This document shows, in pieces, positions 2,442 through 62,368 of a stretch of 64,000 bases of DNA (positions within the stretch are counted from its first letter, which is position 1; every line of letters begins with the position of its first letter). The position numbers and the translations under genes are program-made. Source of the stretch: an uncultured delta proteobacterium (GTDB taxonomy: Bacteria > Desulfobacterota > Binatia > Binatales > Binataceae); NCBI GenBank assembly GCA_963813785.1, contig CAWFAJ010000002.1, positions 7,654-71,653 of the forward strand, in the 5' to 3' direction. Below the pieces are notes generated by a model. The model did no database searches, had not been told where the DNA came from, and was given only the letters and a program-made list of their open reading frames with translations.

Positions 2442-2500
2442 CGCAGCCGTGATCTCCGGAGTCAGGTCAATTCTGACTAGTCAGTCGATTACTCACTCGG

Positions 2501-10427: not shown

Positions 10428-11255
10428 TCATCGCCCGAACAGTCCTCGCAATCGATCGCGCCATCCGCCGGTGGCCGCCGTATGCCCGGTCGGCGACGTC
10501 ATTCTGAAGACCGCGCAGGTCAGATTGTCGGCAGTACCGCGCTTATTGGCCGTGTCGATCAAGTTGCGGCATCCCGTCTGGGGGTCAACGCCGCGCGTCA
10601 GTGATTCCAGCTCCTTGTCATCCAGGACATTGTACATCCCGTCGCTGCACAGTATCAGGCGATCGCGCTCCAGCAGCGGCATCGCGATCCGATCGATCGA
10701 CACGATCAACTCGTGTCCAAGACTGCGCAGAAGCATCCCGCGCTCCGGATGATTCTTCGCGCGCGCCGCCGACATCACGCCCATCCTGACCCGGTCGGCG
10801 ACCATCGTGTGATCTTTTGTGATTTGCGAGATTTGGCGGTGACGGATCAGATGCAGCCGGCAATCTCCGACGTGCACCGCCGACAGCATCCCCTTCTCCA
10901 CCGCAACCGCGGTCATCGTGGTCGCCATCCGGCCCAGCTCCGGGACGGTCAGCGCCTTGTCGTGAATCTCGATGTTGGCCCGGGTGATCGCGCGATGGAG
11001 CCGTTTGGCGGCGCCCCATGCTGGCGGACTCTCGCGGTAAGCCTCAAGAGTTATGTCGATCGCCATGCGGCTTGCGATTTCACCGCCTTCGTAGCCGCCG
11101 ACGCCGTCGGCAATCGCGAACACCACACTGTCGGGACTCTCGATGAAATGCCCGCACGAGTCTTCATTGTCGGGGCGGTCGGTGCCTACGTCGGACAACA
11201 GCGCCAATTCGAAAGCTTGCTCTACCGAAGCAGGAGCGGCGACCGACGAATCCAT
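10428..11255 (-). CDS. PP2C-family Ser/Thr protein phosphatase
   Basis: PP2C motifs: FAIADGVGG, metal-binding Asp residues, and DG near the C-terminus. Located upstream of the kinase on the same strand. Confidence 0.85.
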   Translation of the reverse strand: MDSSVAAPASVEQAFELALLSDVGTDRPDNEDSCGHFIESPDSVVFAIADGVGGYEGGEIASRMAIDITLEAYRESPPAWGAAKRLHRAITRANIEIHDKALTVPELGRMATTMTAVAVEKGMLSAVHVGDCRLHLIRHRQISQITKDHTMVADRVRMGVMSAARAKNHPERGMLLRSLGHELIVSIDRIAMPLLERDRLILCSDGMYNVLDDKELESLTRGVDPQTGCRNLIDTANKRGTADNLTCAVFRMTSPTGHTAATGGWRDRLRGLFGR

Positions 11256-11308
11256 TTGGATTGAGCTACCCGGCTAACGCTGAGGAGTAAAGTCGGTTCA
11301 ACGGCCAA

Positions 11309-11340
11309 GGGGCGGGCCGCGCTCCCACGCGGCCCGCCCC
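11309..11340 (-). terminator. perfect 13-bp-stem hairpin downstream of the permease pseudogene
   Basis: GGGGCGGGCCGCG-ctccca-CGCGGCCCGCCCC; located about 30 bp past the permease stop. Confidence 0.5.
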
Positions 11341-11370
11341 ACGGATTATTCGCCAAACCAGCGCCTGGGA

Positions 11371-13042
11371 TCAGGCCGGCTTGGTTACCAGAATCGTCTC
11401 TTTGCCCCGCTTCTTGGAATTACGCATGAAGTAAACCGCGCCGTAGATTCCCCAAATCGCGGCAGATCGCGACCGCCATCAGCGGTTCCTTCACGCTGCC
11501 GAGCCCCTCCAGCGGTCCGATGATGTAGAACGCGAGGCAGGCAAAGTTCGCGACCGCGCCGAACACCGGCACCACCATGTGCTTGAATCCATGGAACTCG
11601 TGACGCTCCGAGTAGGCCACGATGCACACGATGTTGGTCAGACCGTAGAGCAGGAAGGTTCCGAAGTTTGAAGTGAGAGTGACCAGCAGCAACCCGTTGG
11701 GCAACGACGAGAGCGACGCGTTGGAGCTCATTCCGAGCGCGTACCACAGGTTGTGCGGCAGCGTCGCAATCGTCTTGTCATCAGGCGCCGATCCGCCGGC
11801 GAAGTAGAACAGCGCGGCGTATGCGCCGAGGACTGCCGATATCGTTGCAAGCACCCAAATCGCGCGATGCGGCGTCAGGTTCTGGCCGTGCAGAAGACCG
11901 AAGTGCTCGGGCACTTCCTCGTCGCGGCCCATCGCGTAGGTCACGCGCGCGCCGGTGTTGATGCACGACAGCGTGGTGCCGATCAGCGCCAGAAAAACCG
12001 TCAGCGCTTCCATCAGCATGAACGCCTGCCGTGTCCGCCGAGCAGCGCGTTGCCGATGATCACCATCATGTCGCCGAGCGGAGCCGCCGAACCTTTGGCC
12101 TCCGCAAGACTGTAGGCGCTGTTCAGGAAATAGTTGGCCGCGAAGTATTCGATCAGGTAGCAGAACAACCCCTGGATCGTCAGCGACAGCAGAACGCCGC
12201 GCGGGATGTCCTTTTTGGGGTTCTTCGCTTCCTCGCCAAGCGCGGTCACCGACTCGAAGCCGACCAGCAGCAGAATCGCGACCGTTGCCTGCAGCATCAC
12301 CCAGTCAAACCGGTGCGGCAGGATGACCGAGAGTGCGCTGGCGTGCGACGGGTGGTCGCCGGTAATGCCGTAGGGCCCAGGGTCGCAGCGATCGTGTTGC
12401 CATTGGCGTCGAGCGCCAGGCCCGCCGAGCCTGCGGGATGCCCGGCACGGTAAGCGATCGCAAGCGCCGCAGAAGAACAGCAACGCGACGATCTGGACTC
12501 CGTTGATCCCGATATTGACGATGCGTGGAACCGTTGACTCCCCGGAACGCGATCCATGCCACGGCGTAAGCGAAAATTATCGCAATTATCGCCATGAATA
12601 CCGGGCCGGGGATTCCCGCGTTCATCGTGCTCGGCGCGACCGTGCCGACGATGTATCCGATCATGATGCCCATCGTGGCGACCATGACTCCGGGATACAT
12701 CCAGTAATACAGATGCGACGACCATCCGATTACGAACTTGGCCACGCGCGCGAACTTGTACGCGTGGGTTTTGCTCAGGAAGGCCTGCTCCGCAAACAGA
12801 TACGAACTGCCCGCGCCCGGATAGAGTTTGGCGAGCTCTGCGTACGAAATTGCGGTCGCGTACGCCAGCATCAGCGCGACGAAAATACCGGCCCACATCG
12901 CCATCCCCGACGGAAACGCGTAACCCGCCTGCTGGACGAATGTAATCCACAGGAAGGCTCCTGGGGCGATGAGCGCCATGGCGTTAACCGTGACCCCGGT
13001 CAAGCCCAGCGTCGGCACCATCTTTTTCTGTTCTTCAGCCAT
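11371..13042 (-). pseudogene. APC-superfamily amino-acid permease interrupted by at least 5 frameshifts
   Basis: Recognisable APC permease sequence is spread over three reading frames (ORFs 12305..13042, 12013..12483, 11420..12019). An authentic C-terminus (WGIYGAVYFMRNSKKRGKETILVTKPA*) sits in a fourth frame ending at 11371. Frame switches were traced by hand near 12524, 12470, 12385, 12020 and 11460. Confidence 0.7.
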
Positions 13043-16032: not shown

Positions 16033-16075
16033 TTACTGGGTGCAGGGGTCACCCCTGCCGCCAGTGAAAAAACCG
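16033..16075. repeat. REP/MITE-like palindromic element, copy 1 (module B, inverted orientation)
   Basis: TACTGGGTGCAGGGGTCACCCCTGCC is the reverse complement of GGGCAGGGGTGACCCCTGCACCCAGTA at 59565..59590; it contains a palindromic core. Confidence 0.6.
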
Positions 16076-38764: not shown

Positions 38765-38840
38765 GCCACCCTAGCTCAGTTGGTAGAGCAGCTGATTCGT
38801 AATCAGCAGGTCGCCGGTTCGAATCCGGCGGGTGGCTCCA
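38765..38840 (+). tRNA. tRNA-Thr (anticodon CGT)
   Basis: 76-nt cloverleaf. Acceptor stem GCCACCC/GGGTGGC, D-arm GCTCAGTTGGTAGAGC, anticodon loop TTCGTAA, T-arm GCCGGTTCGAATCCGGC, CCA end encoded. Confidence 0.85.
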
Positions 38841-39187
38841 AACAAAACCCCACGCGCAGAGCCACAATCTGAATCCGGCCGGTTTCCGGCGTAGCTCTGA
38901 ATCAGCTCTTAGGCAACCCCTAGGCAACCGACCGGCGTTGCCGGCACCGGCGGGATAGGCGGAAGGTTGATTGCGGAAAAACTTGGTCGGTGGGAAGCAG
39001 AGCGGGGAGCGGTGCGTCGAGAATCTCCTGCAAGAGCCGCCGAACCGTCTTGGAAAGCGTCCGGGACGGCTTGCAGTGGGCCACCGCTACCACCGCGAGG
39101 GGCCACGACGGTCAGACTGGGACCGAGTTGACGCTGGAGCGGCTATCCGGCTAAAACTCTCGTGGTTGCAGAGTCAAAATCGAAATT

Positions 39188-39235
39188 CCGGCTGAGACGC
39201 GGCAGAACTTCGGCGCCGAACCCGGTCGAGCGACC
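39188..39235. repeat. direct repeat A (LLM-family gene C-terminal relic) flanking the cytochrome gene
   Basis: CTGAGACGCGGCAGaACTTCGGCGCCGAAcccGGTCGAGCGA. The minus strand encodes ...GFGAEVLPRLS. Confidence 0.6.
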
Positions 39236-39312
39236 GCCACGCCGGCGAATGACGACTACGTTGCGTCCCAAATGTGCGGATTGGCCTGCTTGTCTTTACG
39301 TGAGGATTTGCG

Positions 39313-41511
39313 ATGAAACTGCAGCATCGACTGATTTCCTGCCGCGAGCGAGTCGCAAGACAAAGCACCTGGCGGTCAATCCTAAGAATCCATGCCTTGG
39401 CACTGCTGGCGTGGGGGTTTGCTGGCTCGCCGAGCGCATTGGCGTTCGACGTAAAGAGCGCAAAGCTGATCGATAAGGGTTTCAAGCTTTTCACCCAGGA
39501 AACATTCAAGGGCAACGGCCGTACCTGCTCAACCTGCCATATACCCAAGGACGACTACACGATCAGCCCGGCGGATTTTCCCACGCTGAGCGCCCATGAC
39601 AGGAACCTCGTGCTGGCGACACACAATTCGCAGCTCGAAAACCAGAACTTGGTAAATCAATTCGCCCTGTTCAACATCACTAACGAAACGCCGGCCGCGA
39701 GCGGAAATGGTACCACGCCGACCGGTCCGTTCCGCGCCTCGATGCAGCTAAGCGGATTGGCGCTCACCACGCTGAACGACTGCCCGAATGCGACATTGAT
39801 TGCGGCGGCCACCGACACCGGCGCGACCGCCGAGATCACAACCGTCACGCCTCCCCTCTTCCCGTTTGTGGTAAACGAACTCGTAAGAATCGAGGGAGTC
39901 AGCGTCGCCGGCTACAATGGCAGTACTTTTGAGATCTCCAGCGTAATCAGCCCCACCACATTCCAGTACACGACGTTGACTGGAGCCGATATCACCGGAC
40001 TCCCCTCGGCAGGGCCCGGCGGCGGTGTCAGCGGGCTGCCCACTCCACCGACTACTACTACCGGGTCGGGAGTGTGTTCCACTGCGCCTAATTTCGTGAC
40101 ATCCCCAACCACCACAGGCACCCGGTTCATAGAGCTCGGTTGGGCGGGAGACGGCGCACCCGTCGACCCCACGCTTTTCGAAGTTGGCAAACCTCGCGAC
40201 TACGCGGATTGCGTAACCTCCGTCAACAACGCTAATTCTAACCCCAACGTCCTCGGCCCGGTGTTGAATGCGTTCTCGACCGGAGCCGTCAGGCACCATT
40301 TCACGCGCACCAATTCCCGCGTGCCTGGAAAGGATTTCCGCTGCCCGACCTCCGCTGAGTTGAATGCGCTGGCGGCATTTCAAGAGTACCTCGGGCGCCA
40401 ATTCCCATCTGGTACACCTCTCGAACTCGCCTTGGAAGGAGGAACAACTTTCCCGGGAACACAAGTCAGCTCGTTGCAGCCCGTGATCACCTTTAACGAT
40501 TCCACGGCGGAGACGGGCAAGGCGATATTCTTGAATCCGAGCGCGGCTTGCAATTTCTGCCACTTCAATGGCGGCGCGAGCATGAGTACAACCCAGGTAA
40601 AAACGGAGCCGTTAGGAGACCCGCCGCTGCCGTTTCCCGGTCGCAACGAGAACAACTCGCAACTCGTGAACGTCTTAACCGACACCACCTTTATTATTCC
40701 GTCAACCGGACAGACGGTCACTGGCGGGCTTGACGGCTTGACGCCGGTGACCATTGGCAATGATCCCGGCGACGGAACTCCTTTCAGCGACAAGCATGGC
40801 GGGTTCATACCCATATTCAACGTCCAGTCAATTATAGAAGCGCCGCGCAAAAAGAGTTTTTTCCACAATGGTTCCTTCACTACCAGCGTGGAGGACGCGG
40901 CGTCGTTCTACTTTGGTAACCCTACGGTCAATATTTCGGGCAGCACACTCATCACGCCCGGTTTCGACCTCGCCAACGGCAATTTCGCGGTTGGCACCAA
41001 CCAGGACGGCTCACTAGTTACCGTCGCGTCAGGGTTGCCAAACCCACTGCCAAGAGCAGCCGGGGGAGAAACCGGCACCCAAGCCCTTGTGCAACTTGCC
41101 GGCACCTACTTTCCTTCCGATTCGGTGGCCGGCAACGTGCTGACTTCGCCGGGTGGGCAGGACGTGCTCAACACGCTTGGGTTCTTCCTGAGGGCGCTCA
41201 ACGTGGTTTACAGCATCGCCGATTGCGAGCGGCTGGTGGACGATACGGTCAGCCGTCTCCATGCGGGCTTGCCGACACAGGTGCCGGTCCTCAACTGCAC
41301 CACGGACTTGGGCGATGTGGACCGCGTCATTGCGGGCGCGCGTGTGACCGTGCCGGACAACTACCTCGCCGTCCAGACGCAGGCGCAGGAACTCCAGGGC
41401 CAGTTGAAGAAGTATGCCAAGCATGGCAATCGCGTGAAGTTGATAGGGATTACTAACCAGCTGAAAGCCATGAGGGAGTCGATTGCATCGATCTCGCCAG
41501 ACCTGCCGTGA
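39313..41511 (+). CDS. di-haem c-type cytochrome, CCP/MauG-like, with a large Thr/Gly-rich insertion
   Basis: Signal peptide. First CxxCH sits in the CCP-type context FKGNGRTCSTCHIP. A second CxxCH (AACNFCHFNGG) lies about 370 aa later, against about 145 aa in canonical CCPs. 732 aa in total. Confidence 0.55.
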   Translation: MKLQHRLISCRERVARQSTWRSILRIHALALLAWGFAGSPSALAFDVKSAKLIDKGFKLFTQETFKGNGRTCSTCHIPKDDYTISPADFPTLSAHDRNLVLATHNSQLENQNLVNQFALFNITNETPAASGNGTTPTGPFRASMQLSGLALTTLNDCPNATLIAAATDTGATAEITTVTPPLFPFVVNELVRIEGVSVAGYNGSTFEISSVISPTTFQYTTLTGADITGLPSAGPGGGVSGLPTPPTTTTGSGVCSTAPNFVTSPTTTGTRFIELGWAGDGAPVDPTLFEVGKPRDYADCVTSVNNANSNPNVLGPVLNAFSTGAVRHHFTRTNSRVPGKDFRCPTSAELNALAAFQEYLGRQFPSGTPLELALEGGTTFPGTQVSSLQPVITFNDSTAETGKAIFLNPSAACNFCHFNGGASMSTTQVKTEPLGDPPLPFPGRNENNSQLVNVLTDTTFIIPSTGQTVTGGLDGLTPVTIGNDPGDGTPFSDKHGGFIPIFNVQSIIEAPRKKSFFHNGSFTTSVEDAASFYFGNPTVNISGSTLITPGFDLANGNFAVGTNQDGSLVTVASGLPNPLPRAAGGETGTQALVQLAGTYFPSDSVAGNVLTSPGGQDVLNTLGFFLRALNVVYSIADCERLVDDTVSRLHAGLPTQVPVLNCTTDLGDVDRVIAGARVTVPDNYLAVQTQAQELQGQLKKYAKHGNRVKLIGITNQLKAMRESIASISPDLP

Positions 41512-41577
41512 CACAGAATTGTGAGATCGAGAGCCCTCGGGCAACTCCGGGGGGTTTCTTTTTCCCGCATCGCGGCT

Positions 41578-41625
41578 ACCTGAGACGCGGCAGGACTTCG
41601 GCGCCGAAGCGGTCGAGCGAGCGTC
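41578..41625. repeat. direct repeat B (second LLM C-terminal relic)
   Basis: About 42 of 45 nt identical to repeat A. The minus strand encodes MIELIVVPQLPGLDPAKARRSLDRFGAEVLPRLR*. Confidence 0.6.
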
Positions 41626-41990
41626 GCGCCTTGGCGGGATCGAGCCCCGGCAACTGCGGCACGACGATAAGCTCGATCATTGGGGTAATTGAAGCTGCCG
41701 GTGATGACGGTCGCACCGTTGACGACCATGACCTTGTTGTGCATCAGACCCGGCACAAAGTATCCACGAGGTCAGGTACGCCGGCTGAAACAAGGCGCCC
41801 CACGGCCTAAGTCTCGCCTTAGGATAACCGCAATCCCGATAATCGCGAAAAGGACTGGACGTAGCAGAAACCCGGTAACGACAACAAGCAAGATTACACC
41901 CGCCCAGATCACAAGAATCTCGTGGCGCACTAAGGTCCACCAGAAGTGGTGGGCAATCAGTAAGACGGGCTTGTCAGAAGAGATCACGTA
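41580..41990 (-). pseudogene. possible internally deleted relic of a phospholipase-D / cardiolipin-synthase-like gene
   Basis: ORF 41772..41987 encodes two hydrophobic helices typical of a Cls N-terminus. Fifteen bp downstream, in another frame, is an HKD-like motif: HNKVMVVNGATVITGSFNY. Confidence 0.35.
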
Positions 41991-42392
41991 GAGGCCAGGC
42001 GGTGTACCGCCTCCGGGCCGATATGTCGCCTCAAGCCGAACACAACCGCGTGGATTCAGATTTAGCTTTCAAACGAGAGTCCGCCATTGTCCGCACCGTA
42101 GAAGAGTCCCGCTCTAATAGCCTTCTTCAAGTGAGAAGAAAATTCCGGTTAGGTTGATAATATCCCGCGTAAGCAAAAAGCGTGAGTTTCTCATATCCGC
42201 AGCGATCCGGCGCTTCGAATCGCTGCCAATCGGCTTCCGACTCGTCGAGGAAGTCCGCGTAGCTCTGATCGACGAGAAGGCGGCGGTGAGGTGTTTGCGC
42301 CGCTTTCGAAGTTTTGAGAAGGCACAGGTCAACATATTCAACAAGGATTTACGCTGCGCGGGCAAAATGCGGTGCGATCCGGGGCGCCTTCC

Positions 42393-43366
42393 TCAGGCCG
42401 TGCGCACCGCCCAGAAGATGCCGTAGTCGATCATTCCCAGGCGCAGTGCGCGATAGGACCGCGTCACGTGCTCGTGGACGTTGTCCAAGTCCACTCCCGC
42501 GCGCGCCCTCACGTACCCTTTGTACATCCGGTAGAGCGGCGGGGTCTCAAAGAAGAGCGCGAAGATGCGGCAGTACTGTTCGAAGTAGCGCAGATTCTTC
42601 GCGGTGCAGATCTCCGCTTCGCGAAGCGTGAAGCCGGCCTTGGTGATCTTCGCACGATAGCTGTGGATCGTCTCCAGATAGGGCACGTCCCATGCCTCGA
42701 GGAAGCTCCTGTAGATCCGGCGATTTCTCTCCGAAGCGTTGACGACCCGATCTACCACCAGCAGATCGGCGAATGCGAATGCTCCGCCCGGTTTGAGCAC
42801 CCGCGCAGCTTCTTTTAGGAACTGGCCCTTGTCCTTGAAGTGCGCGGGAGCCTCGATTGACCACGCAAGCGAGTATTCTCGATTGCGCACTGGTAGCTTC
42901 AGCGCGTCTCCTTCGGTGAATCCGACGTGCCCTGGCGAAATCTTCCGGGTGGCGCTGTTGCGGTTCGCACGCCGAACGTTGAATGGAGTGAAGTCGAGGC
43001 CGAGTACGTCCAACCCGTATTTTTTGTGCGCACGAATCGCGGGACCACCACGCCCCGAGGCGATATCGAGGAGACGCGGGGGATCGTCACCCTTGTAGGG
43101 GCCGGTGTTGTGAAGAGCGAGCAGTCCCTCAGCAATCCGATCGATCAGGCGAAGATGAGCCCTTTTGCTCCAGTGACGCTGGCGCGAATCTGAGTATCCT
43201 ATGTTCAGGTAGGTACCGAGATCCGACCACTGGCCCAGGAATCGATATAGATCCGAGTGCGAATTACCATAGCTGTAGTGCCGGCGGACGTCATCATCGA
43301 CCCAATGCTCGTTCCTTATCGCGGACGCGTCCGGGGCGCCGGCGGGGCTATTCCTTGCGCGCATTG
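42393..43366 (-). CDS. class-I SAM-dependent methyltransferase (cyclopropane-fatty-acyl-phospholipid / mycolic-acid synthase-like)
   Basis: SAM motif I LLDIASGRGGP; CMAS-family C-terminal region. Start chosen at MRARNSP (43366); the track ORF extends further upstream. Confidence 0.7.
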
Positions 43367-44793
43367 CCAATCTGCCAGTGGCGGGCCAGTTTCGTAGGAA
43401 TTTGAAAGGGTGGCCGATCGCCCCCGCGCTCCGACAGATGCAGGCCTTCCGCCATCCTGCGAAACAGCCATTCCGCCGCGAGCCGGATCGGCGGTAGCTG
43501 ATCGATGTCTTCGGCATCGAGATGGCGCAGGCCTCCGGCCTTCAGTAAATCCTGGAAAACGGTTGCAGCCCAGTCGAGGTCGATTCCGGCCAGGCCCGCG
43601 ACGCCGGTGCCGATCCGATGTGCATGGGTGAGACCGCGGAGCATCTGCAGGCCAAGGGTGTCTTTCCAGTCAAGGCGCAGCCCAATTGCGCCCGCGATCT
43701 TCGAGCTAACCAGTTCGCGGGTGATTATACGCGGGATGCGGCGCAACGGCTCGAAGGTCTCGGGAACAAAGTCCTCCATGTACTCGAGCAGCGCCTTCTC
43801 CAACGATCTGCCCTCGTTGGTTCTGGCGATGACGCCGGGCCTCAGCCAGATGCGCTCGTATAGCTCCTGCGCCTCCTCCATCGACTCTTGGCCCTTGGGA
43901 AGGAGCATTCTGTCATCGACACCCATGATCGCGCCCACGACGTTCCAGCAGTGAAGATATGCTTTTTCTTCGAAGTGGGTGAGATCGACCCCCAACTTGC
44001 GAAGACTGCGAAGCACTACGTAGGAGAAACTCAGGATCGCCATGCTCATGGCAACTTGGTTAGCCGGCTCGCCCCACTCTTGTTCGTGCCAGCGCATCTG
44101 CAGGAAGGCGTTTCCGAGTTCAGATCCCGGTTTGCCGTTGGCGGGCATTTTGGTGGGCTGCTGCTTGATCAGATATCTGATCGCGGCGTGCATCAGGCGC
44201 ACCTTTTGCGCCGCCTCGACGCCTTCGTCGCTCAAGCCTTGCACGTTGTCTTCGCGCTCTTGCATCAGGTTGACCACAAACAGGGATGTTTCCCACAGGC
44301 GGCGCTGGGTGTGACTCAGGAGTTGCTGCGTCATTCCCAAAACCTTTGCGCCATAGGAGGTGGCGTAGGATTCCGGCAGACTGGCGCATCCCAAGATTGC
44401 AAAGGCAATCATACCGTTTTGTCTAAAGACGCGCTGGCCGGTCGCAATCAGCTCTGGCTCAGCCCAAGGTACTATTCTTGTGTCGTCGAGGTATTTGTCC
44501 AGGAGTTCGCCAACTTTCTTGCGATCGCCGGGACTAGAGCCTTTAAAGGCGTCGGTCAGCTTGCTTCTGAAATGTCCGATTCTCTCATGTTGAATCATGT
44601 TGCGCAGTAGGTCCGCGAGCAGTGGCAGTCCACCTTGAGTCTGCTGCGCGACCTTGGTCACCAAAGCGTCTGCCAGGTCGTCCCCCTTCCGACACATCTC
44701 GTCAATAAGATTTTCGCTCCATCCTTGTGTCTGCTCGATTTCCTGCCTTCCTCTCCCTCTTGCTTTTGCTCGATCGCGGGCTCTTTTTGGCAT
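43348..44793 (-). CDS. DUF2236 (MpaB/oxygenase-like) family protein
   Basis: 481 aa, all-helical, with a central block VRLMHAAIRYLI that I recall as the DUF2236 core; the family assignment is tentative. Confidence 0.45.
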   Translation of the reverse strand: MPKRARDRAKARGRGRQEIEQTQGWSENLIDEMCRKGDDLADALVTKVAQQTQGGLPLLADLLRNMIQHERIGHFRSKLTDAFKGSSPGDRKKVGELLDKYLDDTRIVPWAEPELIATGQRVFRQNGMIAFAILGCASLPESYATSYGAKVLGMTQQLLSHTQRRLWETSLFVVNLMQEREDNVQGLSDEGVEAAQKVRLMHAAIRYLIKQQPTKMPANGKPGSELGNAFLQMRWHEQEWGEPANQVAMSMAILSFSYVVLRSLRKLGVDLTHFEEKAYLHCWNVVGAIMGVDDRMLLPKGQESMEEAQELYERIWLRPGVIARTNEGRSLEKALLEYMEDFVPETFEPLRRIPRIITRELVSSKIAGAIGLRLDWKDTLGLQMLRGLTHAHRIGTGVAGLAGIDLDWAATVFQDLLKAGGLRHLDAEDIDQLPPIRLAAEWLFRRMAEGLHLSERGGDRPPFQIPTKLARHWQIGNARKE

Positions 44794-44805
44794 CCTCGAT
44801 TCCCT

Positions 44806-47800
44806 CTACATGGTTGCCGATTCCGTCAGGAGCGCCTTGGCGTCCTTAAGATCGGGCGTATCGAATCCCTCGGTGAACCAACCGTAAACCGACTCCAAAG
44901 TCTTGCGAGCCGATTGCGGATTGCATTGTTTGCGCTTGAGACGGTAAAGGCTCATCGCGGTCCGCAGCTCCCATGACTTCGCGCTCTGGCGCCGCGCGAC
45001 TTCCAGGCTCTTCATGAAGGCTGCTTCCGCACTCGCCTCCTGCGGACGGGTCAGCGCGAGCAAAAGCGCGCCTTTAAGCCGGTACAACTCGGCTTCGTAG
45101 TATTCCTCGCGGGTGCTGGCAACCTCGGCGAGACCCTCGCTGATGGCTTCGAGGCCTTGCTCAGGGTGGCCGGACTTCGCCAGCGCGTCGGCCAGCAGTC
45201 CTTGCTGATGAGGGCCTGTCACGGGGGCTCCCAAGGCGCGACATGCGTCCTTCGCGCCACGCAGTACAGCTACAGCCTCCTCAGACTGCCCGAGCTGGTT
45301 CAGCGCCCATCCGAGGCTGAATCGAGTAGCCAACAAGAGGAAGGCGAATCCATGCTCCGTCGAGAGGGCGAGACCTTCATCAGCGAGTTGTTTGCCCAAT
45401 GGAATGTCGCGGAGCAACTGGCAGAGGGCGGCCCCGTACGTCTTGGCGTACGCAAGACTGAATTTGTGAGACAGCCCGCTAGCCAGCATGAAGCAGTCGC
45501 GCTGCCTTGAAAGCGCTTGTTCAGGATAGCCTTGAAACCACAAGATCCAAGGCAGAACGGAGCCCGCGACGATACCGGGGTCCTGACCGTAGGCCAGCGC
45601 ATGGCCTTGGTGACTGCGCGGATCGTAAATCGACAACACTTTCTCGAAATGGGAGCGCGCCCGGGCAAGATCGCAGCCTCCGTAGAATGCGTTCTGTCCG
45701 CTCACTGCATGCGCTTCCAGAAGCAGATCCGGGTCGCGCTGACGTTCGGCCAGACTCAGAAGCTGACGGCCGATTTCCTGGGAGTCTCGATACTCGGCGC
45801 GGACGAGATAATAGCCCCACAAGCCATAAAGCACCGGGTAAAGCTGCGGAGTATCTCCGAATCCGGCGCATAGTTCGCGCGCGCGGCTGAACGCGCCCTC
45901 CACATCCGGCGACGAGTAACCCTTCGCGAACATCAACGATTGCCCAAGGTTTAACTGCAGACCAAGTTCCAACTGATCGCGCTGCGGGCCGGCGGCGATC
46001 GCCGGCAGCAATTCCAGACCTGAAGTGAAATGAGCTATTGCGTCGGCATAGGCGGAGCGTGCTGCTACCTTCTGCCCGGCCAGGTAAAAGTACGGTGCGG
46101 CTTTGTTCGCGTCGGACCCGCGTGAGTAGTGGCGCGCGAGCTCTTCGACGTAATCGTCTAAGTGATTGGCAAACGTCGCCTCGATCGCTTCACCGATGCG
46201 GAGGTGTAGCGCCTTGCGCCGTTCGGCAAGCACCGAGCCGTAGGCCACTTCCTGCGTCAGCGCGTGTTTGAAGACGTATGCGGCATCGGGGAACGTCGGC
46301 AGCTCGTGGATGAACTCCGCCAATTGCAGGCTGGCGAGCATTCGCTGGAGATCCTCACCGTCCGTCGCCGCGACCTGCTCGATCAGGGCGAGTGGAATTT
46401 CCTTGCCAATCACCGCGAGCGTTTGCAGCAATTCCTTTTCCCTGGGGACACGCCGGTCGATGCGCGAGGCAAGTATTCCCCGAACGGTCGGCGGGATACG
46501 CAACTCCGCCAGCGGCTTCGCGAGTCTCACGGCGCCATCGCGCACCAGTGCGCTCTCTTCGAACATCGATTGGACGATCTCCTCCATGAAAAACGGATTG
46601 CCATCGGTCTTTTCGACGATGAGCCGTTTCAGTCCGGACAGGTCGTCGTCGCCGTGCTTTGCAGGGGCGGATCGGGAACCGTCCGCCGCCGCGAACACGC
46701 GCGCGTGTCGGGCGTCTTCGCGTTCGCCACTGTGCTCCTGGTCAGGCAGAGGAAAGGAAGTGTCGAGCAGCGCGGACAGCATCTCCTCGGCGCTGTCCTT
46801 GCCGAGCGGATCGAGCCGCAGCTGCGTGTAGTAGGTCTTGCTTCCCCATTCGTGGTGATACTCGGGGCGATAGTTGACCAGCAGCAGAATCCGCGTGTTG
46901 GCGATTGCCTCTGCCAACATGTTCAACAGTGCCTGGCTCTCGCCGTCTATCCAGTGCAGGTCTTCGAAGATCAGCATCATCGGCTGCTCGCGGCTCTCGC
47001 GCAGCAGCAGGTTCTTCACCGCTTCCAGGGTTCGCCGTCGTTTGAGCTGCGGTTCCATCCCCGCGAGCGTGTTGCTCTCGTCCGTCACGCCGATAAGCGC
47101 AAACAGATAAGGGAGGGTTGTTTCCAGGGCGCGGTCCAGGGTCATCACCCTGCCGCTGACCTTCTCACGGCGCTTGCCATGGTCGTCTTCGGGCGTGATT
47201 TCGAAATAATCTCTGAGCAAATCAACCACCGGCAGATACGCCGGAGCCTTTGCGTGGGAGACCGAGAAGGTTTCGAGCAGCATCCAGCCCGACTGATTCC
47301 TGGCTTTGAACTCGTGGAACAGGCGCGATTTGCCGACTCCGGGCTCGGCCATCGCCGCCACGATTTGTCCGCGCCCTTGCTTTGCAAGCTCCGCGGCATG
47401 CGTCATCGCCTCGATCTCGCGCTCGCGTCCGACGAACTTCGTGAGTCCGCGTCCCGCTGACCGCTGCAGTCGGGTGCGCAGCGGTCCCAGCCCGGTAACT
47501 TCGTATACCTCGACCGGCTCGCTGATGCCCTTGATGCGCGCGGGGCCAAGCGCCTTCAGCGTGAAGTACCCCTCGACCAGCTTGCGGGTCGCCTCGGTGA
47601 TCGCAGTTGCACCAGGATGGGCCAGGGTCTGCATTCGCGCGGCGAGATTGGCGGTGTGTCCAATCGGCGTGTACTCGACATTGCCGCCGCCGGTGGCAAT
47701 CGAGCGCACCACGACCTCGCCGGTGTTGATTCCAATCCTGATCAGCAAGGGCGCGCGGCCCTCTCCCTGGAGCCTCTCTCCGTAGCGGCGCAGCTCTTCC

Positions 47801-48300
47801 TGAATGCGCAGCGCCGCATAAAGCGCACGCTGCGGATGGTCCTCGTCCGCGATCGGTGCGCCGAACAGCGCGAAGATGCCGTCGCCCGTGGACTGCACTA
47901 CGTAACCGTCGTACCGATGGACCGCATCGATCATGAGCTTCAACGCTGGGTCAATAATCGCGCGCGCCTCTTCCGGATCGAGGTCTTCCTCCAGTGCGGT
48001 GGAGCCCTTGATGTCGGCGAACAGCGCCGTCACGGTCTTGCGCTCGCCGTCGACGACGAGCGAGGAATCCGATTGCTCCTGCGTAACAAGGATGCCGGAC
48101 GCGGCGGGTTCGGTTATAGAAGCTTTAGGCGCATTCGCTGCAGCCGTGTCGACGAGAGTGGCTCCGCATTCTCCGCAGAACTTCTCGCCGGGTTCGTTGG
48201 ATGCGCCGCAGCGCGTACAGCTGGTCGAAATCGGAGCGCCGCATTGCGCACAGAATTTGCGCCCTCCCCGGTTCTCACCTCCGCATTTCGTGCAACGCAT
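44806..48300 (-). CDS. multidomain signalling protein: double zinc-ribbon, class-III adenylate/guanylate cyclase, STAND/AAA ATPase and TPR repeats
   Basis: N-terminal CxxC x4. Cyclase-domain motifs FADIKGSTAL, VQSTGDGIFALFGAP, IRIGINTGEVVV. P-loop AEPGVGKSRL. A long helical TPR-like C-terminus. 1164 aa. Confidence 0.85.
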   Translation of the reverse strand: MRCTKCGGENRGGRKFCAQCGAPISTSCTRCGASNEPGEKFCGECGATLVDTAAANAPKASITEPAASGILVTQEQSDSSLVVDGERKTVTALFADIKGSTALEEDLDPEEARAIIDPALKLMIDAVHRYDGYVVQSTGDGIFALFGAPIADEDHPQRALYAALRIQEELRRYGERLQGEGRAPLLIRIGINTGEVVVRSIATGGGNVEYTPIGHTANLAARMQTLAHPGATAITEATRKLVEGYFTLKALGPARIKGISEPVEVYEVTGLGPLRTRLQRSAGRGLTKFVGREREIEAMTHAAELAKQGRGQIVAAMAEPGVGKSRLFHEFKARNQSGWMLLETFSVSHAKAPAYLPVVDLLRDYFEITPEDDHGKRREKVSGRVMTLDRALETTLPYLFALIGVTDESNTLAGMEPQLKRRRTLEAVKNLLLRESREQPMMLIFEDLHWIDGESQALLNMLAEAIANTRILLLVNYRPEYHHEWGSKTYYTQLRLDPLGKDSAEEMLSALLDTSFPLPDQEHSGEREDARHARVFAAADGSRSAPAKHGDDDLSGLKRLIVEKTDGNPFFMEEIVQSMFEESALVRDGAVRLAKPLAELRIPPTVRGILASRIDRRVPREKELLQTLAVIGKEIPLALIEQVAATDGEDLQRMLASLQLAEFIHELPTFPDAAYVFKHALTQEVAYGSVLAERRKALHLRIGEAIEATFANHLDDYVEELARHYSRGSDANKAAPYFYLAGQKVAARSAYADAIAHFTSGLELLPAIAAGPQRDQLELGLQLNLGQSLMFAKGYSSPDVEGAFSRARELCAGFGDTPQLYPVLYGLWGYYLVRAEYRDSQEIGRQLLSLAERQRDPDLLLEAHAVSGQNAFYGGCDLARARSHFEKVLSIYDPRSHQGHALAYGQDPGIVAGSVLPWILWFQGYPEQALSRQRDCFMLASGLSHKFSLAYAKTYGAALCQLLRDIPLGKQLADEGLALSTEHGFAFLLLATRFSLGWALNQLGQSEEAVAVLRGAKDACRALGAPVTGPHQQGLLADALAKSGHPEQGLEAISEGLAEVASTREEYYEAELYRLKGALLLALTRPQEASAEAAFMKSLEVARRQSAKSWELRTAMSLYRLKRKQCNPQSARKTLESVYGWFTEGFDTPDLKDAKALLTESATM

Positions 48301-48558
48301 TACCTAGCCCATCAACTGACTTCGGGCGCGCCCACCCGAATTATTAATTCGAAATTTCCGATTTAACGCCTCGGGTCTGAATACTCATAGCTTGCCGCGC
48401 GCGCTTTAGCGCAAAGGGCTGGGCCTTACACGCAGTTTAGGTCCGGGCTCGGCCACGCCGGGTCCGATTCCGCCATTCCGACCTGGCCGAAACCTTGCTA
48501 CGATGCATGCGCGGCCGACCTGCAGCGACACACACTCTGCGAGTGCGAGGCGATCGAA

Positions 48559-49233
48559 GTGGCGCCATTTCTGACAATCAAGCGTGAGACAGACCTCATT
48601 GCACTTGCTGCCTTTATTCTTGCATTCGGAGCGGTGACCTATCAGGTCACGGCGTATTTTCGCGGCGCGAACGTAAAGCTATTTGGACCTGAGCAGATAT
48701 TGATCCATGGCGATAAATATCCTGACGGCGAAACCTACGTCCGGTTCGCGGCTCGAATGTCGTATCTAAACTCCGGCGACATCGGCTACAACGCTGTAGT
48801 CGGTCATGAGTCACTACAGATCCAGATTGATAAGGGCCTTTACAGGCAGACATGGCAATATTTCATTCACTCTAGTTCTCCGGACGGTCAGACGCTGAGT
48901 TTGGGAGATCAGGTTGAAGCCGTCCCGACTCCGATAAATGGGGGAGATGCCAAATCACATGAGACTTACTTTGCTCCATGGCCTATCGACTGCAAAAGCA
49001 CCGTCGGCGCCGATTGCAGACCCGGCGCGAATTTCCTGCCGTGGGACACCTTCCTGAATTCGATAAAGTCAGGGGACGTTCTCAAATTTGAACTCATAGC
49101 CGACATTTTTGGAAGCAAGGCTCAAATGGTTACTTGCACGGTCGATGTAGATGATGCACTGATCGCGCAGCTAAAGACTACGCCGAACAAGTGGAGTGCT
49201 CCTGCCTGCCGGGAAGCTTTGTCCTCTCAGTAG
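48559..49233 (+). CDS. hypothetical membrane-anchored protein in a lower-GC islet
   Basis: One N-terminal TM helix and a 190-aa Cys-containing ectodomain. Local GC is about 50-53%, against about 65% in the flanks. Confidence 0.45.
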   Translation: MAPFLTIKRETDLIALAAFILAFGAVTYQVTAYFRGANVKLFGPEQILIHGDKYPDGETYVRFAARMSYLNSGDIGYNAVVGHESLQIQIDKGLYRQTWQYFIHSSSPDGQTLSLGDQVEAVPTPINGGDAKSHETYFAPWPIDCKSTVGADCRPGANFLPWDTFLNSIKSGDVLKFELIADIFGSKAQMVTCTVDVDDALIAQLKTTPNKWSAPACREALSSQ

Positions 49234-49591
49234 GACTCGATTCGACCCTCATTCAGTCGCGCTCGAATCCGCGTTTGACCCGCTTTCCATGCAACGACGG
49301 ATAGTCCGCAGGGCTCAGAATCGACTGCCAAACGACTGCCGATCACGACCGAACAGGACCGATCACCACCGACCTCGATTCTGACAAAATCCCCGTGTCG
49401 CGCGGGTGTTGCTGCGTCGTGATCGATGGTGATCGCCCCGGGACTCGTTGCTGGTCAGCGGCGCCATGTGAATCCCCTGTCGTACAAGGGGTTCAACGTC
49501 AATTATGATCGTCTATGATCGAAACCACCGGGAAATAGCCTATGACCGATCTGTCATAGACAGGTGACACACGATTTGAGATAAGCGCAGT

Positions 49592-50701
49592 ATGACACCG
49601 CTCGAACGCGTACACGTTGGTCTGATTGGTTGCGGGCGCATCGCCAGCCTGCAGGTCCTGGGCTATCGCGATCACCCGCGCGCGGAGCTGACAGCAATCT
49701 GTGACAACGACGAAGCGCTACTAGGTCAGCGACAGCAGGAGTGGCAACCAAAGAAGACCTATCGTGACTATCACCAGCTTCTCGCCGACTCCGACGTGAA
49801 CGCCGTGGAGATCCTGATACCACACCACTTGCATCGCGAGGTCGCCATCGCCGCGTTGCAAGCAGGCAAGCATGTGTCGTTGCAGAAGCCGCCGGCGTTG
49901 ACGCTCCGCGAACTCGGCGACGTGAATGAAGCGGCGAAACGTGCGGGACGCCGGCTGCGTGTCTTCGAGAACTTCATGTACTATCCGCCGCACGTCAAGG
50001 CGCGCGCGCTGATCCAGGAAGGCGCAATCGGTGAGCCCATCTCGGTGCGTATCAAGACGGCGGCCGGACGTTTCGATGACGGCTGGCGGGTGCCGGCCAC
50101 GTCGCTGGCGTGGCGCATGAATCCGGAAACCTGCGGTGGCGGCCCAACCTGCTTCGACCACGGCTACCATTGCTACAACATGGCGCGCTTCTTCGTCGCC
50201 GAGCCGGTCGAACGCGTGCACGCGTGGATTCACGTCAACCGGTTTGGATCGGACGCTTTCTACGACGGGCCCGCTTTGATCAGTTGGAAGTACGCCGGCG
50301 TACCCAAGTTCGGCAGCTGGGAAGTGATCGCGTCGGTGGGCATGCGGGTACGCTCGAAGTACTACGCCAGTGACGACCGCATCGAAATCCACGGGACCGA
50401 GGGCATCATCTGGATCAACCGCTGTACCGGTTCGCTTCTCGACGAGCCTGCGCTGGTCCTGTATCGGGACGGCCAGACGCGCGCCTGGCACGACATTCCA
50501 AACGACTGGTCGGAAAGTTTTCGCCTCGGCGTGCACGATTTCATCGACGCGTTGATTGAAGGCCGCCAACCCCCACAGGATGCCGGCGATGCAGCGGCAA
50601 CGCTCGGCTTCGCCATAGCAGCCCACGTCTCGGCCTGCGAGCACCGCGAAGTGCGTCTCGACGAGATCGGGCCGGACACCAGAGCGCGACTCCCGATCTG
50701 A
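49592..50701 (+). CDS. Gfo/Idh/MocA family oxidoreductase
   Basis: N-terminal Rossmann motif VGLIGCGRIA. Confidence 0.85.
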   Translation: MTPLERVHVGLIGCGRIASLQVLGYRDHPRAELTAICDNDEALLGQRQQEWQPKKTYRDYHQLLADSDVNAVEILIPHHLHREVAIAALQAGKHVSLQKPPALTLRELGDVNEAAKRAGRRLRVFENFMYYPPHVKARALIQEGAIGEPISVRIKTAAGRFDDGWRVPATSLAWRMNPETCGGGPTCFDHGYHCYNMARFFVAEPVERVHAWIHVNRFGSDAFYDGPALISWKYAGVPKFGSWEVIASVGMRVRSKYYASDDRIEIHGTEGIIWINRCTGSLLDEPALVLYRDGQTRAWHDIPNDWSESFRLGVHDFIDALIEGRQPPQDAGDAAATLGFAIAAHVSACEHREVRLDEIGPDTRARLPI

Positions 50702-50786
50702 CTGGCTGTCCGTCCCGAGAACTCGTGCGGGTGCTTTTTTCCGGGACGATATCCGCCAGTCTCGCGTCCAGCCGCGTGAGGATCGG

Positions 50787-59530: not shown

Positions 59531-59590
59531 TATGCGGAACCCACCGTGGGTTCCGCACCTCCTTGGGCAGGGGTGACCCCTGCACCCAGT
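59531..59590. repeat. REP/MITE-like element, copy 2 (modules A+B)
   Basis: Palindrome TGCGGAACCCACCGTGGGTTCCGCA followed by the palindrome-containing GGGCAGGGGTGACCCCTGCACCCAGTA. Confidence 0.6.
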
Positions 59591-59737: not shown

Positions 59738-60319
59738 TTGAAGAGGATCACTTTTGAGGAAATACTTTCGCTGGGCGATTACGGACGCGTGCGCGAGCGG
59801 CTGCGGCCCTTGTTTATTCATGAGAAGGAACGGCGCCGGCTCCACGTCGGGTCGCATCTGACGCTGCTGTTCGAGAACCCGCAGACCGCGTGGTACCAGA
59901 TCGAGGAGATGATCAGGGCCGAGAAAATGACGGAGCGCGAGGCGATCGAGCACGAAATCGACACTTACAACGATCTGCTTCCGGCCGCGGGCGAAATTGC
60001 CGCGACGCTGTTAATTGAATACGCCGAGGCGCAGGAACGCGACGCCGCGTTGATCCGGCTGGTCGGCCTGGAACGCCATCTGTGGCTCAAGGCGGGCACC
60101 CAAAGGATCGCGGCCAGATTCGACGATCGCCAGATGTCAGAGGAAAGAATCAGCGCGGTGCAATTTGTCAGGTTCAGGCTGGAGGGCGTGGACGCATCCC
60201 GGTTTCTCGAACTCGCCGGCAAAGGCGAGGTATCGGTCCAGGCGGACCATCCGAGCCTGGCGGCACAGGGCGCGATCGAGGGATTGCTGGCAACCTCGCT
60301 CGCGGAGGATCTGCGCTAG
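59738..60319 (+). CDS. DUF3501-like conserved hypothetical protein
   Basis: 193 aa, acidic, no signal peptide. I recall DUF3501 genes commonly sitting next to rubrerythrin plus HdrD-like Fe-S oxidoreductase pairs. Confidence 0.45.
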   Translation: MKRITFEEILSLGDYGRVRERLRPLFIHEKERRRLHVGSHLTLLFENPQTAWYQIEEMIRAEKMTEREAIEHEIDTYNDLLPAAGEIAATLLIEYAEAQERDAALIRLVGLERHLWLKAGTQRIAARFDDRQMSEERISAVQFVRFRLEGVDASRFLELAGKGEVSVQADHPSLAAQGAIEGLLATSLAEDLR

Positions 60320-60335
60320 CGGGAGGGAGATTGAA

Positions 60336-60412
60336 TGTGAAACCCACCGTGGGTTTCACGCTTCCTTGGGCAGGGGTAACCCCTGCACCGCAGGGCTGAG
60401 CCCTGCACCCAC
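60336..60412. repeat. REP/MITE-like element, copy 3 (modules A+B plus an extra hairpin)
   Basis: GTGAAACCCACCGTGGGTTTCAC, GGGCAGGGGTAACCCCTGCACC and GCAGGGCTGAGCCCTGC. Same orientation as copy 2. Confidence 0.6.
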
Positions 60413-60418
60413 CGTTAA

Positions 60419-60690
60419 GGCCGCCCGCCGATGGCGGGCGGTCGTTGGCACGACGGGCCGTGCGATGGTCTTGGTCCAGTGCCCTCTCCTTGTCCGAGGA
60501 GAGGGTTAGGGAGAGGTGCCACGATCGAAAGAGAATGGCGACGCGGGCGTTGAACCTCTCCCGGCGCGCTAGGAATCGCGCCGACCTCTCCTCGGACAAG
60601 GAGAGGTTAGGTCGTGTCTCCCCCGGTACAAACCGGCGTCCGGTTATGCAGAGCTCTCCCTGAGAGGCGAGGAAAATACAGACGCGATGG
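60419..60690. repeat. array of at least 6 short GC-rich hairpins built around GGAGAGG/CCTCTCC motifs
   Basis: GCCGCCCGCC-gat-GGCGGGCGG; CCTCTCC-ttgtccga-GGAGAGG (60483-60504) and its exact reverse complement at 60586-60607; GGCGCG-ctaggaat-CGCGCC; AACCGG-cgt-CCGGTT; additional CCTCTC/GAGAGG copies. Confidence 0.5.
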
Positions 60691-60700
60691 GGCACAAAGA

Positions 60701-60735
60701 GGAACACCGAATCCGGCAATCCGGATTCGGTGTTC
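60701..60735 (-). terminator. perfect 15-bp-stem hairpin downstream of the NHL pseudogene
   Basis: GAACACCGAATCCGG-caa-CCGGATTCGGTGTTC, about 35 bp past the stop at 60770. Confidence 0.6.
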
Positions 60736-60769
60736 GCTGTTCGCGTTTAGTTCGTGTGGCTAGCGGCTG

Positions 60770-62368
60770 TTATTCGCAGGCTCCGTCAGCACGTACCCCG
60801 GCGTACGTGCAGGTAGGTTCCGGCGTGGGGGTAAACGCCGGCAAGGCAACGCCGACCGGCAAGTTCATTTTCGCCCCGGGATTTGCAATGACCAGCGTCG
60901 GGGGAATGTCGCCGCCTGACGTCGGGAAATCGGTAAACATCTCGAGCGAATTGTTGCCGTTGCTTACGACGTAAAGAGCCGAGTTGTCCGCGTCGATCGC
61001 GATGCCCTTGGGAGTTTTGAGTTTCGTGTGTTTGCCGGAAATCGTGCCCAGCAGTTCGCCATCGAAAGCGAAGATATTGATCATCGAAATTGGTGAAGGG
61101 ATAGAAGATTTTGATGCTGTTATCGCCCATGTCTGTCACGTACAAGTTGTCATCGAAGTCAACCGCATCACCGATCGGTTGATTCAATGAGTCCACTGTC
61201 GGACTTTCAGCGCATCTAGCGCCGCAATTACCGATGAGGGTGGTCGGAAATTGGTCGCCAACCGCGCCAGGAGGATACACGGTTACGTATCGAGGGGCAC
61301 ACGAGAGGTCGAAGGCGAGGGTGCCGGCGTTGTTGACGACAAACAGGTAGCCAATGTCGTCAAACGTGAGGTTTGCCGGCCCCGCCAGTAGAGTAAAGCA
61401 TCCGCCGATGGTGGAGTTCTGGCTATATGGCTGCAAGGGTCAACGGGTTGATCGCGTCCACCACCCATCCGCCGTAGGGAAACGAGGGCGGAATGTTGTT
61501 GAGGCCGGGAACCAAGGTCGAGCGATCATACTCGGTAATCGTGCCCAAGCTCGCGCCAGGCCCAACCGGGCCGCCGCCGCATACTCCGGGGTGTCCCGGG
61601 CTAGGTTCAATGTTCGTGGGCGCGTCCGCGCAGGCGGCCAGGCCGCACTCTCCCCCGGGGCAGTCAGGAGAACCATATACCTCGGGGAACATGTTCGCGA
61701 CGGCTAACTCATCGTGGCCGGGGTCGATTGATCCCATCGTAGGGGCTTTCAAATGCGACGCCCTGGGGGAAGAAGATGCCGGTAGTGTTGGGGAAACCGT
61801 ACGCGAAAAGGGGTGAGCAAATTATGTTTTCCGGCGCCGAGTTGCCATTGGCTTCAGGAGAGAAGATTTCGACCAAGCCAGTGCCATATAACAACGGACT
61901 CACGGTGCCGGGTGCGGGCTGTCCAAAAGGACCGCAGAGAACGCTATCGAGATCGAAAAAGTCGATCGGCATCGAGACCGCGACGTGAGCGTCCATCGAG
62001 CTCACCGAGTCGAAAGCCGCACCGGTGCTGGCGCCCAAATTGGTGTTGGTGCCGTGGACAAAAAATTTGGGCTTGGAACTGTGTCCGGCACCGGCGACAA
62101 AGGTCTCGAGGCTGCCGTCGAAAACAGCGCCATAACTCGAGACGACGACCGTGTCTTGGAGACGGCGGGCCGGGGGGGTGTTTTTAATCTTCTTCTTGGA
62201 TTTCGCGTAGCTGGTGCCCGCTGTACCCACGAGGAGCGCAGCGATCACGAACGCCACGGCCACGAGCGAAAGCCGACGAGCGACGGCGGTAAGCTTGAGC
62301 GCCCGCGCGTGCGCCAACGAGATCCCATCCCTGCCCTGAGTCATCGCCTGCATCCTTCCATGCGTCAT
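60770..62368 (-). pseudogene. NHL-repeat beta-propeller secreted protein split into four frames by at least 3 frameshifts
   Basis: Four ORFs (61709..62368 with signal peptide/TM, 61423..61752, 60786..61436, 60770..61084) form one colinear protein. NHL-like repeats LNQPIGDAVDFDDNLYVTDMGDNSIKIF and LKTPKGIAIDADNSALYVVSNGNNSLEMF are present. Confidence 0.6.

Follow-up and report, generated by a model that had tools for sequence, protein, structure and literature searches.

The 64,000-nucleotide stretch analysed here, referred to below as the window, comes from an uncultured member of the Binataceae (assembly GCA_963813785.1, contig CAWFAJ010000002.1, positions 7,654 to 71,653). Between the stop codon of a plus-strand DUF3501 gene (59738-60319; Pfam E = 2e-56) and that of a convergent minus-strand gene (at 60770) it carries an interval rich in short hairpins, which had been described from the letters of the DNA alone (the original prediction). 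The interval is indeed non-coding, with no gene called there in L001, a closely related contig (94-99% identical; compared loci are denoted by L numbers), and the whole region 60320-60770 folds far better than shuffled sequences (z = -9.2 for the plus strand and -11.3 for the minus strand). The analysis showed the hairpin array to be a patchwork of repeats in the intergenic space that separates the two convergent genes. Its core, at 60475-60611, is a miniature, gene-less member of a Candidatus Binatus family of inverted-repeat elements, whose arms follow the grammar of the BoxC/PIT (potential intrastrand triplex)/TM (triplex-motif) repeats and whose full-length relatives carry a gene for DUF559, a Vsr-like PD-(D/E)xK nuclease. 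Of the explanations proposed at the outset, that of a nest of decayed mobile elements is the nearest: the paired 22-mers mark both ends of a single miniature element from a dispersed inverted-repeat family, and two other dispersed modules account for the hairpins upstream of this element. As a feature of the window itself, the region is an ordinary, decayed repeat copy plus a terminator.

The element is 137 bp long, and its canonical orientation corresponds to the minus strand of the window. Its limits were set by BLAST comparison with 119 Binatus loci, in which the matches consistently stop at 60611 on one side and at 60475-60482 on the other. In the consensus of the family ends, TCCAGTGC precedes the 22-mer on one side and TTAGGAT follows it on the other. 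The 22-mer CCTCTCCTTGTCCGAGGAGAGG lies, as described, at 60483-60504 on the plus strand, and forms a stem-loop with an 8-bp stem and a 6-nt loop. The second stem-loop, on the minus strand, is its exact reverse complement and occupies 60585-60606, one base away from the position given previously (60586-60607). No such pair is expected by chance (0 matches expected from shuffles of the window). The TTAGG reported to follow both copies adjoins only the second one directly, since the first is followed by G and then by TTAGG. The stem of the 22-mer is itself palindromic, and an inverted copy can be told from a direct one only by the 6-nt loop (TGTCCG versus CGGACA); comparison of the family supports the inverted reading, as close pairs always run plus then minus, never minus then plus.

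Both arms of the element share a common grammar: the 22-mer forms a pyrimidine-purine hairpin, and a mirrored purine block (GGGAGAGG) comes after it. The left arm (60482-60517, plus strand), a BoxC/PIT/TM-type motif of type B, reads as a pyrimidine block CCCTCTCCT (60482-60490), the loop TGTCCG (60491-60496), a purine block AGGAGAGGG (60497-60505), the linker TTA (60506-60508) and a mirrored purine block GGGAGAGGT (60509-60517), and a motif scan identified it as the only perfect hairpin-plus-mirror motif in the window. The right arm (60555-60611, minus strand; nhmmer arm model 60545-60612, 56.5 bits) is of type A and consists, on the minus strand, of CCTAA (60611-60607), the 22-mer hairpin (60606-60585), a 21-nt linker hairpin (60583-60563) and the purine block GGGAGAGG (60562-60555); the region 60538-60611 matches about 70 arm copies in BLAST comparisons. 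In consensus form, the common type A arm is composed, from outside to inside, of (G)ATCC-TAA, the hairpin CCTCTCCT-TGTCCG-AGGAGAGG, a TCGGCG-hairpin-CGCCG segment and GGAGAGG-TGCAACGC, and the type B arm of TCCAGTGC, CCTCTCCT-TGTCCG-AGGAGAGG, GTTA and GGGAGAGG-TGC. The further CCTCTC/GAGAGG copies noted around the 22-mers were also found (six of the eight GGAGAGG/CCTCTCC heptamers of the window lie within 60483-60606), because each arm has a third block that mirrors the purine half of its hairpin. Family alignment showed that the arms are separated by a 37-bp interior remnant (60518-60554), which reads TGCCACG... at one end and ...GCGTTGAA at the other, both in agreement with the consensus of the inner arms (TGCAACGC/GCGTTGCA). 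In longer relatives some 70 additional nt, or a DUF559 gene, occupy this position, and the window copy with its 37-bp interior would fit a deletion derivative. The same short architecture is present in L071, L079, L026, L095 and L027.

A scan covering one genome per species revealed the exact 22-mer in at least 119 stretches, essentially all of them from metagenome-assembled genomes of Binatus/Binataceae. Within about 0.9 Mb of Binatus loci the arm profile detected 236 arms, which form 94 inward-facing pairs; most span 226-281 bp (about 72 pairs), the others 129-205 bp (about 16), 495-643 bp (four) and 1.4 kb (one). The aligned copies constitute one family with highly conserved ends and a variable interior (at least 90% conservation in arm columns, 40-80% in interior columns), and for 40 of 72 copies the nearest neighbour resides in the same genome. 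Both ends are exact in 43 pairs, despite the selection of the loci on the exact 22-mer. The only common variant of the 22-mer, CCTCCCCTTGTCCGAGGGGAGG, seen 20 times, is doubly substituted (T5C+A18G) and still fully paired, and neither of the two single intermediates was seen among the variant 22-mers of these loci; judged from these sequences, the hairpin is under constraint. Chance, or a local duplication-inversion, was ruled out by the family data as the origin of the 22-mer pair.

Two observations on individual members of this set are worth mentioning. The 1.4-kb pair, in L027, was considered as a candidate autonomous parent and rejected, since it is a short copy of the window type interrupted by an unrelated IS3-family insertion sequence (1906-3187), which has two open reading frames (ORFs), appears from its sequence to be of the DDE type, and is accompanied by a 3-bp duplication (AAC). 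Another locus, L057 (CAVVHZ010000049.1), is labelled as uncultured Gemmataceae and is 97-98% identical to the Binatus loci L059 and L084 over 0.65-1.4 kb, which suggests that it is probably mis-binned.

All four pairs of 495-643 bp (L015, L065, L088 and L100) contain an ORF of 118-119 aa encoding a DUF559 protein (Pfam PF04480, E = 1e-40), frameshifted in L065. The four sites have unrelated flanking genes; the orientation of the DUF559 gene relative to the interior is constant, and the downstream arm is of type A or type B. A fifth gene-bearing copy was found in L038, where a 40%-identical protein is encoded beside a type B end. When the 250-bp form was compared with the gene-bearing form, the arms and part of the leader matched and the junction was fuzzy, a result compatible both with deletion from the gene-bearing form and with insertion of the gene into the shorter one. 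Replacement of one form by another was observed at orthologous sites. After the stop codon of the same gene, L100 carries a DUF559 copy and L079 a 153-bp gene-less copy; at another orthologous site a DUF559 copy in L088 corresponds to a short copy in L019; and at a third site full elements are present in L111 and L094, whereas L030 has only TAA-22mer-TTA, i.e. a solo hairpin. Orthologous intergenic regions of L048, L014 and L094 were without the element.

The link between DUF559 genes and such arms extends well beyond Binatus. A search with the Binatus protein gave 930 homologs (E = 1e-10 or better), most of which lie on contigs of 1-2 kb. In all four further DUF559 loci that were fetched, including those from Caulobacteraceae and Sphingomonadales metagenome-assembled genomes, the gene lies between inverted arms of the same grammar, and flanking arms were also detected at DUF559 genes in annotated replicons of Deinococcus, Azospirillum, Sinorhizobium meliloti (arms of 114 nt, 96% complementary), Sphingomonas and a plasmid of the cyanobacterium Picosynechococcus. 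A metagenome scan with the DUF559 protein alignment yielded 80 loci (44-74% identity), 60 of them with both flanks. A flanking inverted repeat with a score of at least 14 was present in 45 of these 60 loci, compared with none of 65 shifted controls. The arms are true inverted repeats, including the asymmetric third block, and are often identical within a locus (62/62 and 66/66) and different between loci. The density of perfect motifs reaches 1.96 per kb within 230 bp of DUF559 versus 0.081 per kb beyond 400 bp, a 24-fold difference. The three blocks covary: the third block perfectly mirrors the purine block of its own hairpin in 88 of 124 hairpins, versus 5.7% when purine blocks were swapped between loci. 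This lends only indirect support to formation of a stable triple helix by the single strand in vitro. In the DUF559 alignment the D, E, D and H residues of the Vsr-like site are invariant, and the nuclease, of which PDB 3HRL is a homolog, looks intact.

In Escherichia coli K-12 the DUF559 gene is ycjD, and a BoxC/TM copy (TMECO no. 9) is located approximately 170 bp downstream of it; the region downstream of ycjD is itself repeated, with a median of 13 occurrences per E. coli genome. The BoxC pair between hrpB and mrcB (L218 390-480 in K-12, compared with L219 and L220) is intact in K-12 and in an O157-like strain, is represented by one hybrid hairpin in strain 07_3337, and is entirely missing from an APEC O1:K1:H7 strain. 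Where the pair is lacking, about 15 bp of flanking sequence also differ, with no duplication visible and no exact junction. This turnover mirrors the Binatus pattern. A degenerate repeat of the last ~50 bp of ycjD (GGAGACGGTGCTGGAGAATATTC...) was also observed about 70 bp downstream (L137 4340-4480), with a partial hairpin at the stop codon on one side of it and BoxC copy no. 9 on the other; it looks like a partial tandem duplication of the gene end.

Holder et al. (2015; PMC4666352) described the BoxC/PIT/TM repeats in E. coli and in more than 260 other bacterial genomes, and cited earlier reports on BoxC and PIT. The consensus of the E. coli motifs (TMECO) is CCCTCNCCC N3-6 GGGNGAGGG N3 GGGNGAGGG; K-12 has 23 copies, including five inverted (A+B) pairs, each combining a 'TTA-linker' type with another type, and under the ITxF definition the stem must have 6-15 nt and the loops 1-6 nt (PMC4666352). 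The left arm of the window element, of which an identical copy exists in L138, falls within the ITxF-type definition (nine of nine mirrored positions, loops of 6 and 3 nt); the right arm represents a variant of it, with a 21-nt hairpin as the second loop and seven of eight mirrored positions. Relative to the TMECO consensus, the window arm deviates in the first and second blocks at the position next to the loop, and in the third block at its last position. The two sets of repeats have in common the succession of pyrimidine block, short loop, complementary purine block, short linker and mirrored purine block (the left arm even shares GGAGAGGGTTAGGGAGAGG with TMECO no. 21), as well as a multi-copy, intergenic distribution in inverted pairs of two subtypes (TTA linker versus another linker), local instability and reduction to a single hairpin. 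In contrast to the enterobacterial sequence family, the Binatus blocks are 8-9 nt long with a 6-nt loop, one arm type has the 21-nt hairpin in place of a 3-4-nt linker, the pairs form elements of about 250 bp with a conserved interior, and the arms flank DUF559 genes, whereas the published work reported no associated gene. The motif grammar is already known; the 8-9-nt blocks, the hairpin-bridged arm, the ~250-bp body and the gene-bearing relatives are new in Binatus. Our literature searches found no link between DUF559/YcjD and BoxC or triplex motifs (most subscription journals lay outside their coverage), and nothing relevant on repeats in Binatota.

The explanation favoured here, with moderate confidence as a whole, includes a proposal for how such an element might spread. 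The DUF559 nuclease would recognise the structured arms (as hairpin, cruciform or triplex) and then cut or nick them, and this action would propagate or maintain both the cassette and its gene-less derivatives. The window copy would then be non-autonomous and probably without a dedicated function, except that it adds a strong structure to the DUF3501 transcript in its 3' region. An array of protein-binding sites, as once suggested for this region, may be correct insofar as the arms could be targets of the DUF559 nuclease. The region does not represent the operator array of a regulator connected with the flanking genes. The statement that no flanking gene explains the structure holds for the window, the explaining gene, DUF559, being situated inside longer relatives elsewhere.

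The flanked gene and its arms recall two other systems. REP (repetitive extragenic palindromic) sequences are short palindromic hairpins whose inverted doublets (REPINs) are the replicative unit and decay to singlets, and the associated RAYT gene (an IS200/IS605-like tyrosine transposase) is of low or single copy and flanked by hairpins. The Binatus family resembles them in its hairpins, inverted doublets, decay to singlets and nuclease-type gene between inverted hairpins. It differs in that the flanked gene is DUF559, with a Vsr-like fold, and not an HUH/Y1 enzyme, and in that the arms lack the conserved 5' GTAG of REPs and possess a third mirrored block; in the ~0.9 Mb of loci sampled, none of the arm pairs enclosed a RAYT-like gene. 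The PD-(D/E)xK superfamily contains a clade 'VSR, DUF559, DUF2726', some members of which are listed as homing endonucleases of group I introns (PMC3424549). DUF559 thus belongs to the same fold family as Vsr, in a clade that includes selfish nucleases. Unlike the Binatus cassettes, the genes of Vsr-like homing endonucleases are housed in introns or inteins and have a single cognate site to which they spread; neither inverted hairpin arms at their borders nor hundreds of gene-less miniatures left behind are known for them.

A broader proposal can be put forward tentatively, and with considerably less confidence than the assignment of the window element. BoxC/PIT/TM repeats across bacteria might be the terminal inverted arms of DUF559 (YcjD-family, Vsr-like) cassettes, an unrecognised selfish class with a nuclease acting on its own arms, in which case gene-less pairs and solo hairpins, including those of the window, could be miniature and decayed derivatives. 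This offers a common, testable explanation for repeats known in E. coli since the 1990s and in more than 260 genomes, and for the ubiquitous DUF559/YcjD nucleases. If the nuclease does work on its own arms, a PD-(D/E)xK enzyme and structured DNA ends would make up a mobile or selfish element outside the recognised types of insertion sequence. This would account for the local genome instability reported around the motifs, and also for the broken metagenome assemblies, in which most DUF559 contigs are only 1-2 kb long.

Several observations weigh against these interpretations. There is no DUF559 homolog in the window, and its copy is a gene-less relative. Since the 119 loci were chosen for the exact 22-mer, the apparent conservation of that sequence is inflated. 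The copies are only 75-90% identical to their nearest relatives, and thus give no sign of very recent transposition. Comparison of orthologous loci in different Binatus species yielded no clean empty sites with exact junctions, the intergenic regions being too diverged, and a scan for target-site duplications at all offsets and lengths of 2-9 detected nothing beyond the TA of TAA/TTA, a signal that the inverted repeat itself explains equally well; because of this lack of a clean empty site and of a target-site duplication, gain and loss of the element are not separable. About a quarter of the metagenomic DUF559 loci are without detectable arms, as is the DUF559 gene of Neisseria (L135). The E. 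coli motifs showed neither promoter nor terminator activity and no stable triplex in vivo, and neither an associated gene function nor a link to mobile elements was reported for them (PMC4666352). DUF559 could also be a passenger, or a homing-type gene invading pre-existing arm pairs.

The passenger role would be expected if the family consisted of ordinary MITEs (transposable elements of the miniature inverted-repeat kind), whose 22-bp ends are bound by a DDE transposase encoded elsewhere (e.g. an IS630/Tc1-like, TA-duplicating enzyme), with DUF559 carried occasionally, as in mobile insertion cassettes. Correia elements of Neisseria and ERIC/IRU elements of enterobacteria are examples of the elements reviewed in PMC3184786. 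The Binatus elements share with this group their small size, lack of coding capacity, high copy number, intergenic location and terminal inverted repeats that fold into long hairpins, and their longer relatives hold a gene between the same ends, as mobile insertion cassettes do. Moreover, type A ends have the form TAA...TTA in most copies, and a TA duplication within a CCTAGG-like target is possible in 30 of 43 pairs; TAA and TTA are, however, mutually reverse-complementary, and no duplication adjoining the arms was seen in related cassettes of other phyla. A transposase-bearing parent is also missing: none of the 94 pairs in the ~0.9 Mb sampled encloses a transposase, the sole insertion sequence being the unrelated IS3-family one in L027. 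The gene found repeatedly between such arms, and the only one across phyla, is DUF559, i.e. a PD-(D/E)xK nuclease and not a known transposase. A self-palindromic arm, compensatory changes and a covarying third block are likewise unexpected for a plain transposase-binding site. We consider a conventional MITE an unlikely explanation.

Somewhat less likely still is a structural element maintained by the host, which would protect mRNA 3' ends, pause or terminate transcription, bind nucleoid proteins or act as a non-B-DNA recombination hotspot, in a family not currently mobile. The hairpins are far better conserved than the interiors and their stems are compensated; copies often lie just past stop codons, that of the window between convergent genes; and the E. 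coli motifs have been tied to local genome variability (PMC4666352). The absence of promoter and terminator activity from PIT/BoxC in E. coli (PMC4666352), the patchy presence of the element at orthologous sites, the clustering of copies within genomes and the DUF559 cassettes at four unrelated sites, which point to spread and not to a fixed function, argue against it, and it leaves the nuclease gene between arms in many phyla unexplained. A host-maintained role and a DUF559 cassette family are not mutually exclusive.

A gene for a structured small RNA, which the original prediction had also envisaged, is highly improbable at this locus, and so is a cis-regulatory RNA particular to it. Covariance models of Rfam were run on the whole window (at the gathering threshold), on the region (at an E-value threshold) and on 30 related loci, and no family reached threshold. 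The predicted folding is very strong on both strands, a strength to be expected of every inverted-repeat element. Hundreds of copies of this repeat occupy unrelated sites, and nothing resembling a promoter was detected. The best match, whalefall-1 (RF01762), to which no other family came close in score, covers the full model length on the right arm (60553-60609, minus strand) at 23 bits, below its gathering score of 37. Its consensus layout is that of the arm (a CUCUCC hairpin, a second hairpin, then GGGUGAGG), and no other arm tested matched it. On this resemblance, whalefall-1, an orphan metagenomic 'RNA' motif, may itself be an arm of a related element.

The remaining hairpins of the region are distinct from the 22-mer element. 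The perfect 15-bp hairpin with a 4-nt loop (60702-60716/60721-60735) was confirmed and is terminator-like, as had been proposed. According to the terminator scan, it is on the minus strand with the tail CTCTTTGTGC and begins 35 nt past the stop codon at 60770; as such it would serve the convergent minus-strand gene, not the array. No copies of it exist in the Binatus loci, the sequence from 60612 to 60770 being entirely unique, and it looks like a terminator separate from the repeat.

Upstream of the element, and outside the coordinates first described, lies an unrelated 60-bp double-hairpin module (60330-60389, plus strand; GTGAAACCCACCGTGGGTTTCAC ... GCAGGGGTAACCCCTGCACC, also GTGAAACCCACCGTGGGTTTCAC ... 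GCAGGGGTNACCCCTGCACC), which is more abundant than the 22-mer element (about 81 copies, or approximately one per 11 kb, in 0.9 Mb of Binatus loci not selected for this module). Further copies in the window are located at 59537-59586 and near 16039 (16039-16061). It is followed by a third, rarer repeat module (60390-60459, plus strand; GCAGGGCTGAGCCCTGCACC ... CCGCCCGCCGATGGCGGGCGG ...), with a hairpin CCGCCCGCC-GAT-GGCGGGCGG at 60421-60441; this module is 93% identical over 70 nt to L100 5358-5427 and has few other copies. The close relatives compared at the locus were L001 and L002 only. L001, whose contig is 98-99% identical, has the same intergenic region with one substitution, outside the element. 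In L002, a strain about 97% identical whose contig ends 190 bp past the stop codon of the same gene, the repeat modules, including the third one, follow that stop codon in a different order.

Other differences between the window and L001 were also observed. Upstream of the DUF3501 gene, L001 carries a 144-bp insertion (~9700-9845, versus ~59577 of the window) that is partly a duplicate of the neighbouring repeat module. The convergent gene (60770-62368, minus strand) is split in the window into at least four overlapping ORFs in different frames, and its counterpart in L001 is one intact 523-aa gene (11033-12604) with no Pfam match on record; with six gap openings in 4.4 kb relative to L001, the window version may be either a pseudogene or the product of assembly indel errors. 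Finally, a segment of about 11.9 kb (38841-50777), which starts right after tRNA-Thr (38765-38840), is absent from L001. No integrase was seen among its large ORFs, which include those for a methyltransferase, an MpaB-like oxygenase, an adenylate-cyclase/AAA/TPR protein and a GFO/IDH/MocA oxidoreductase.

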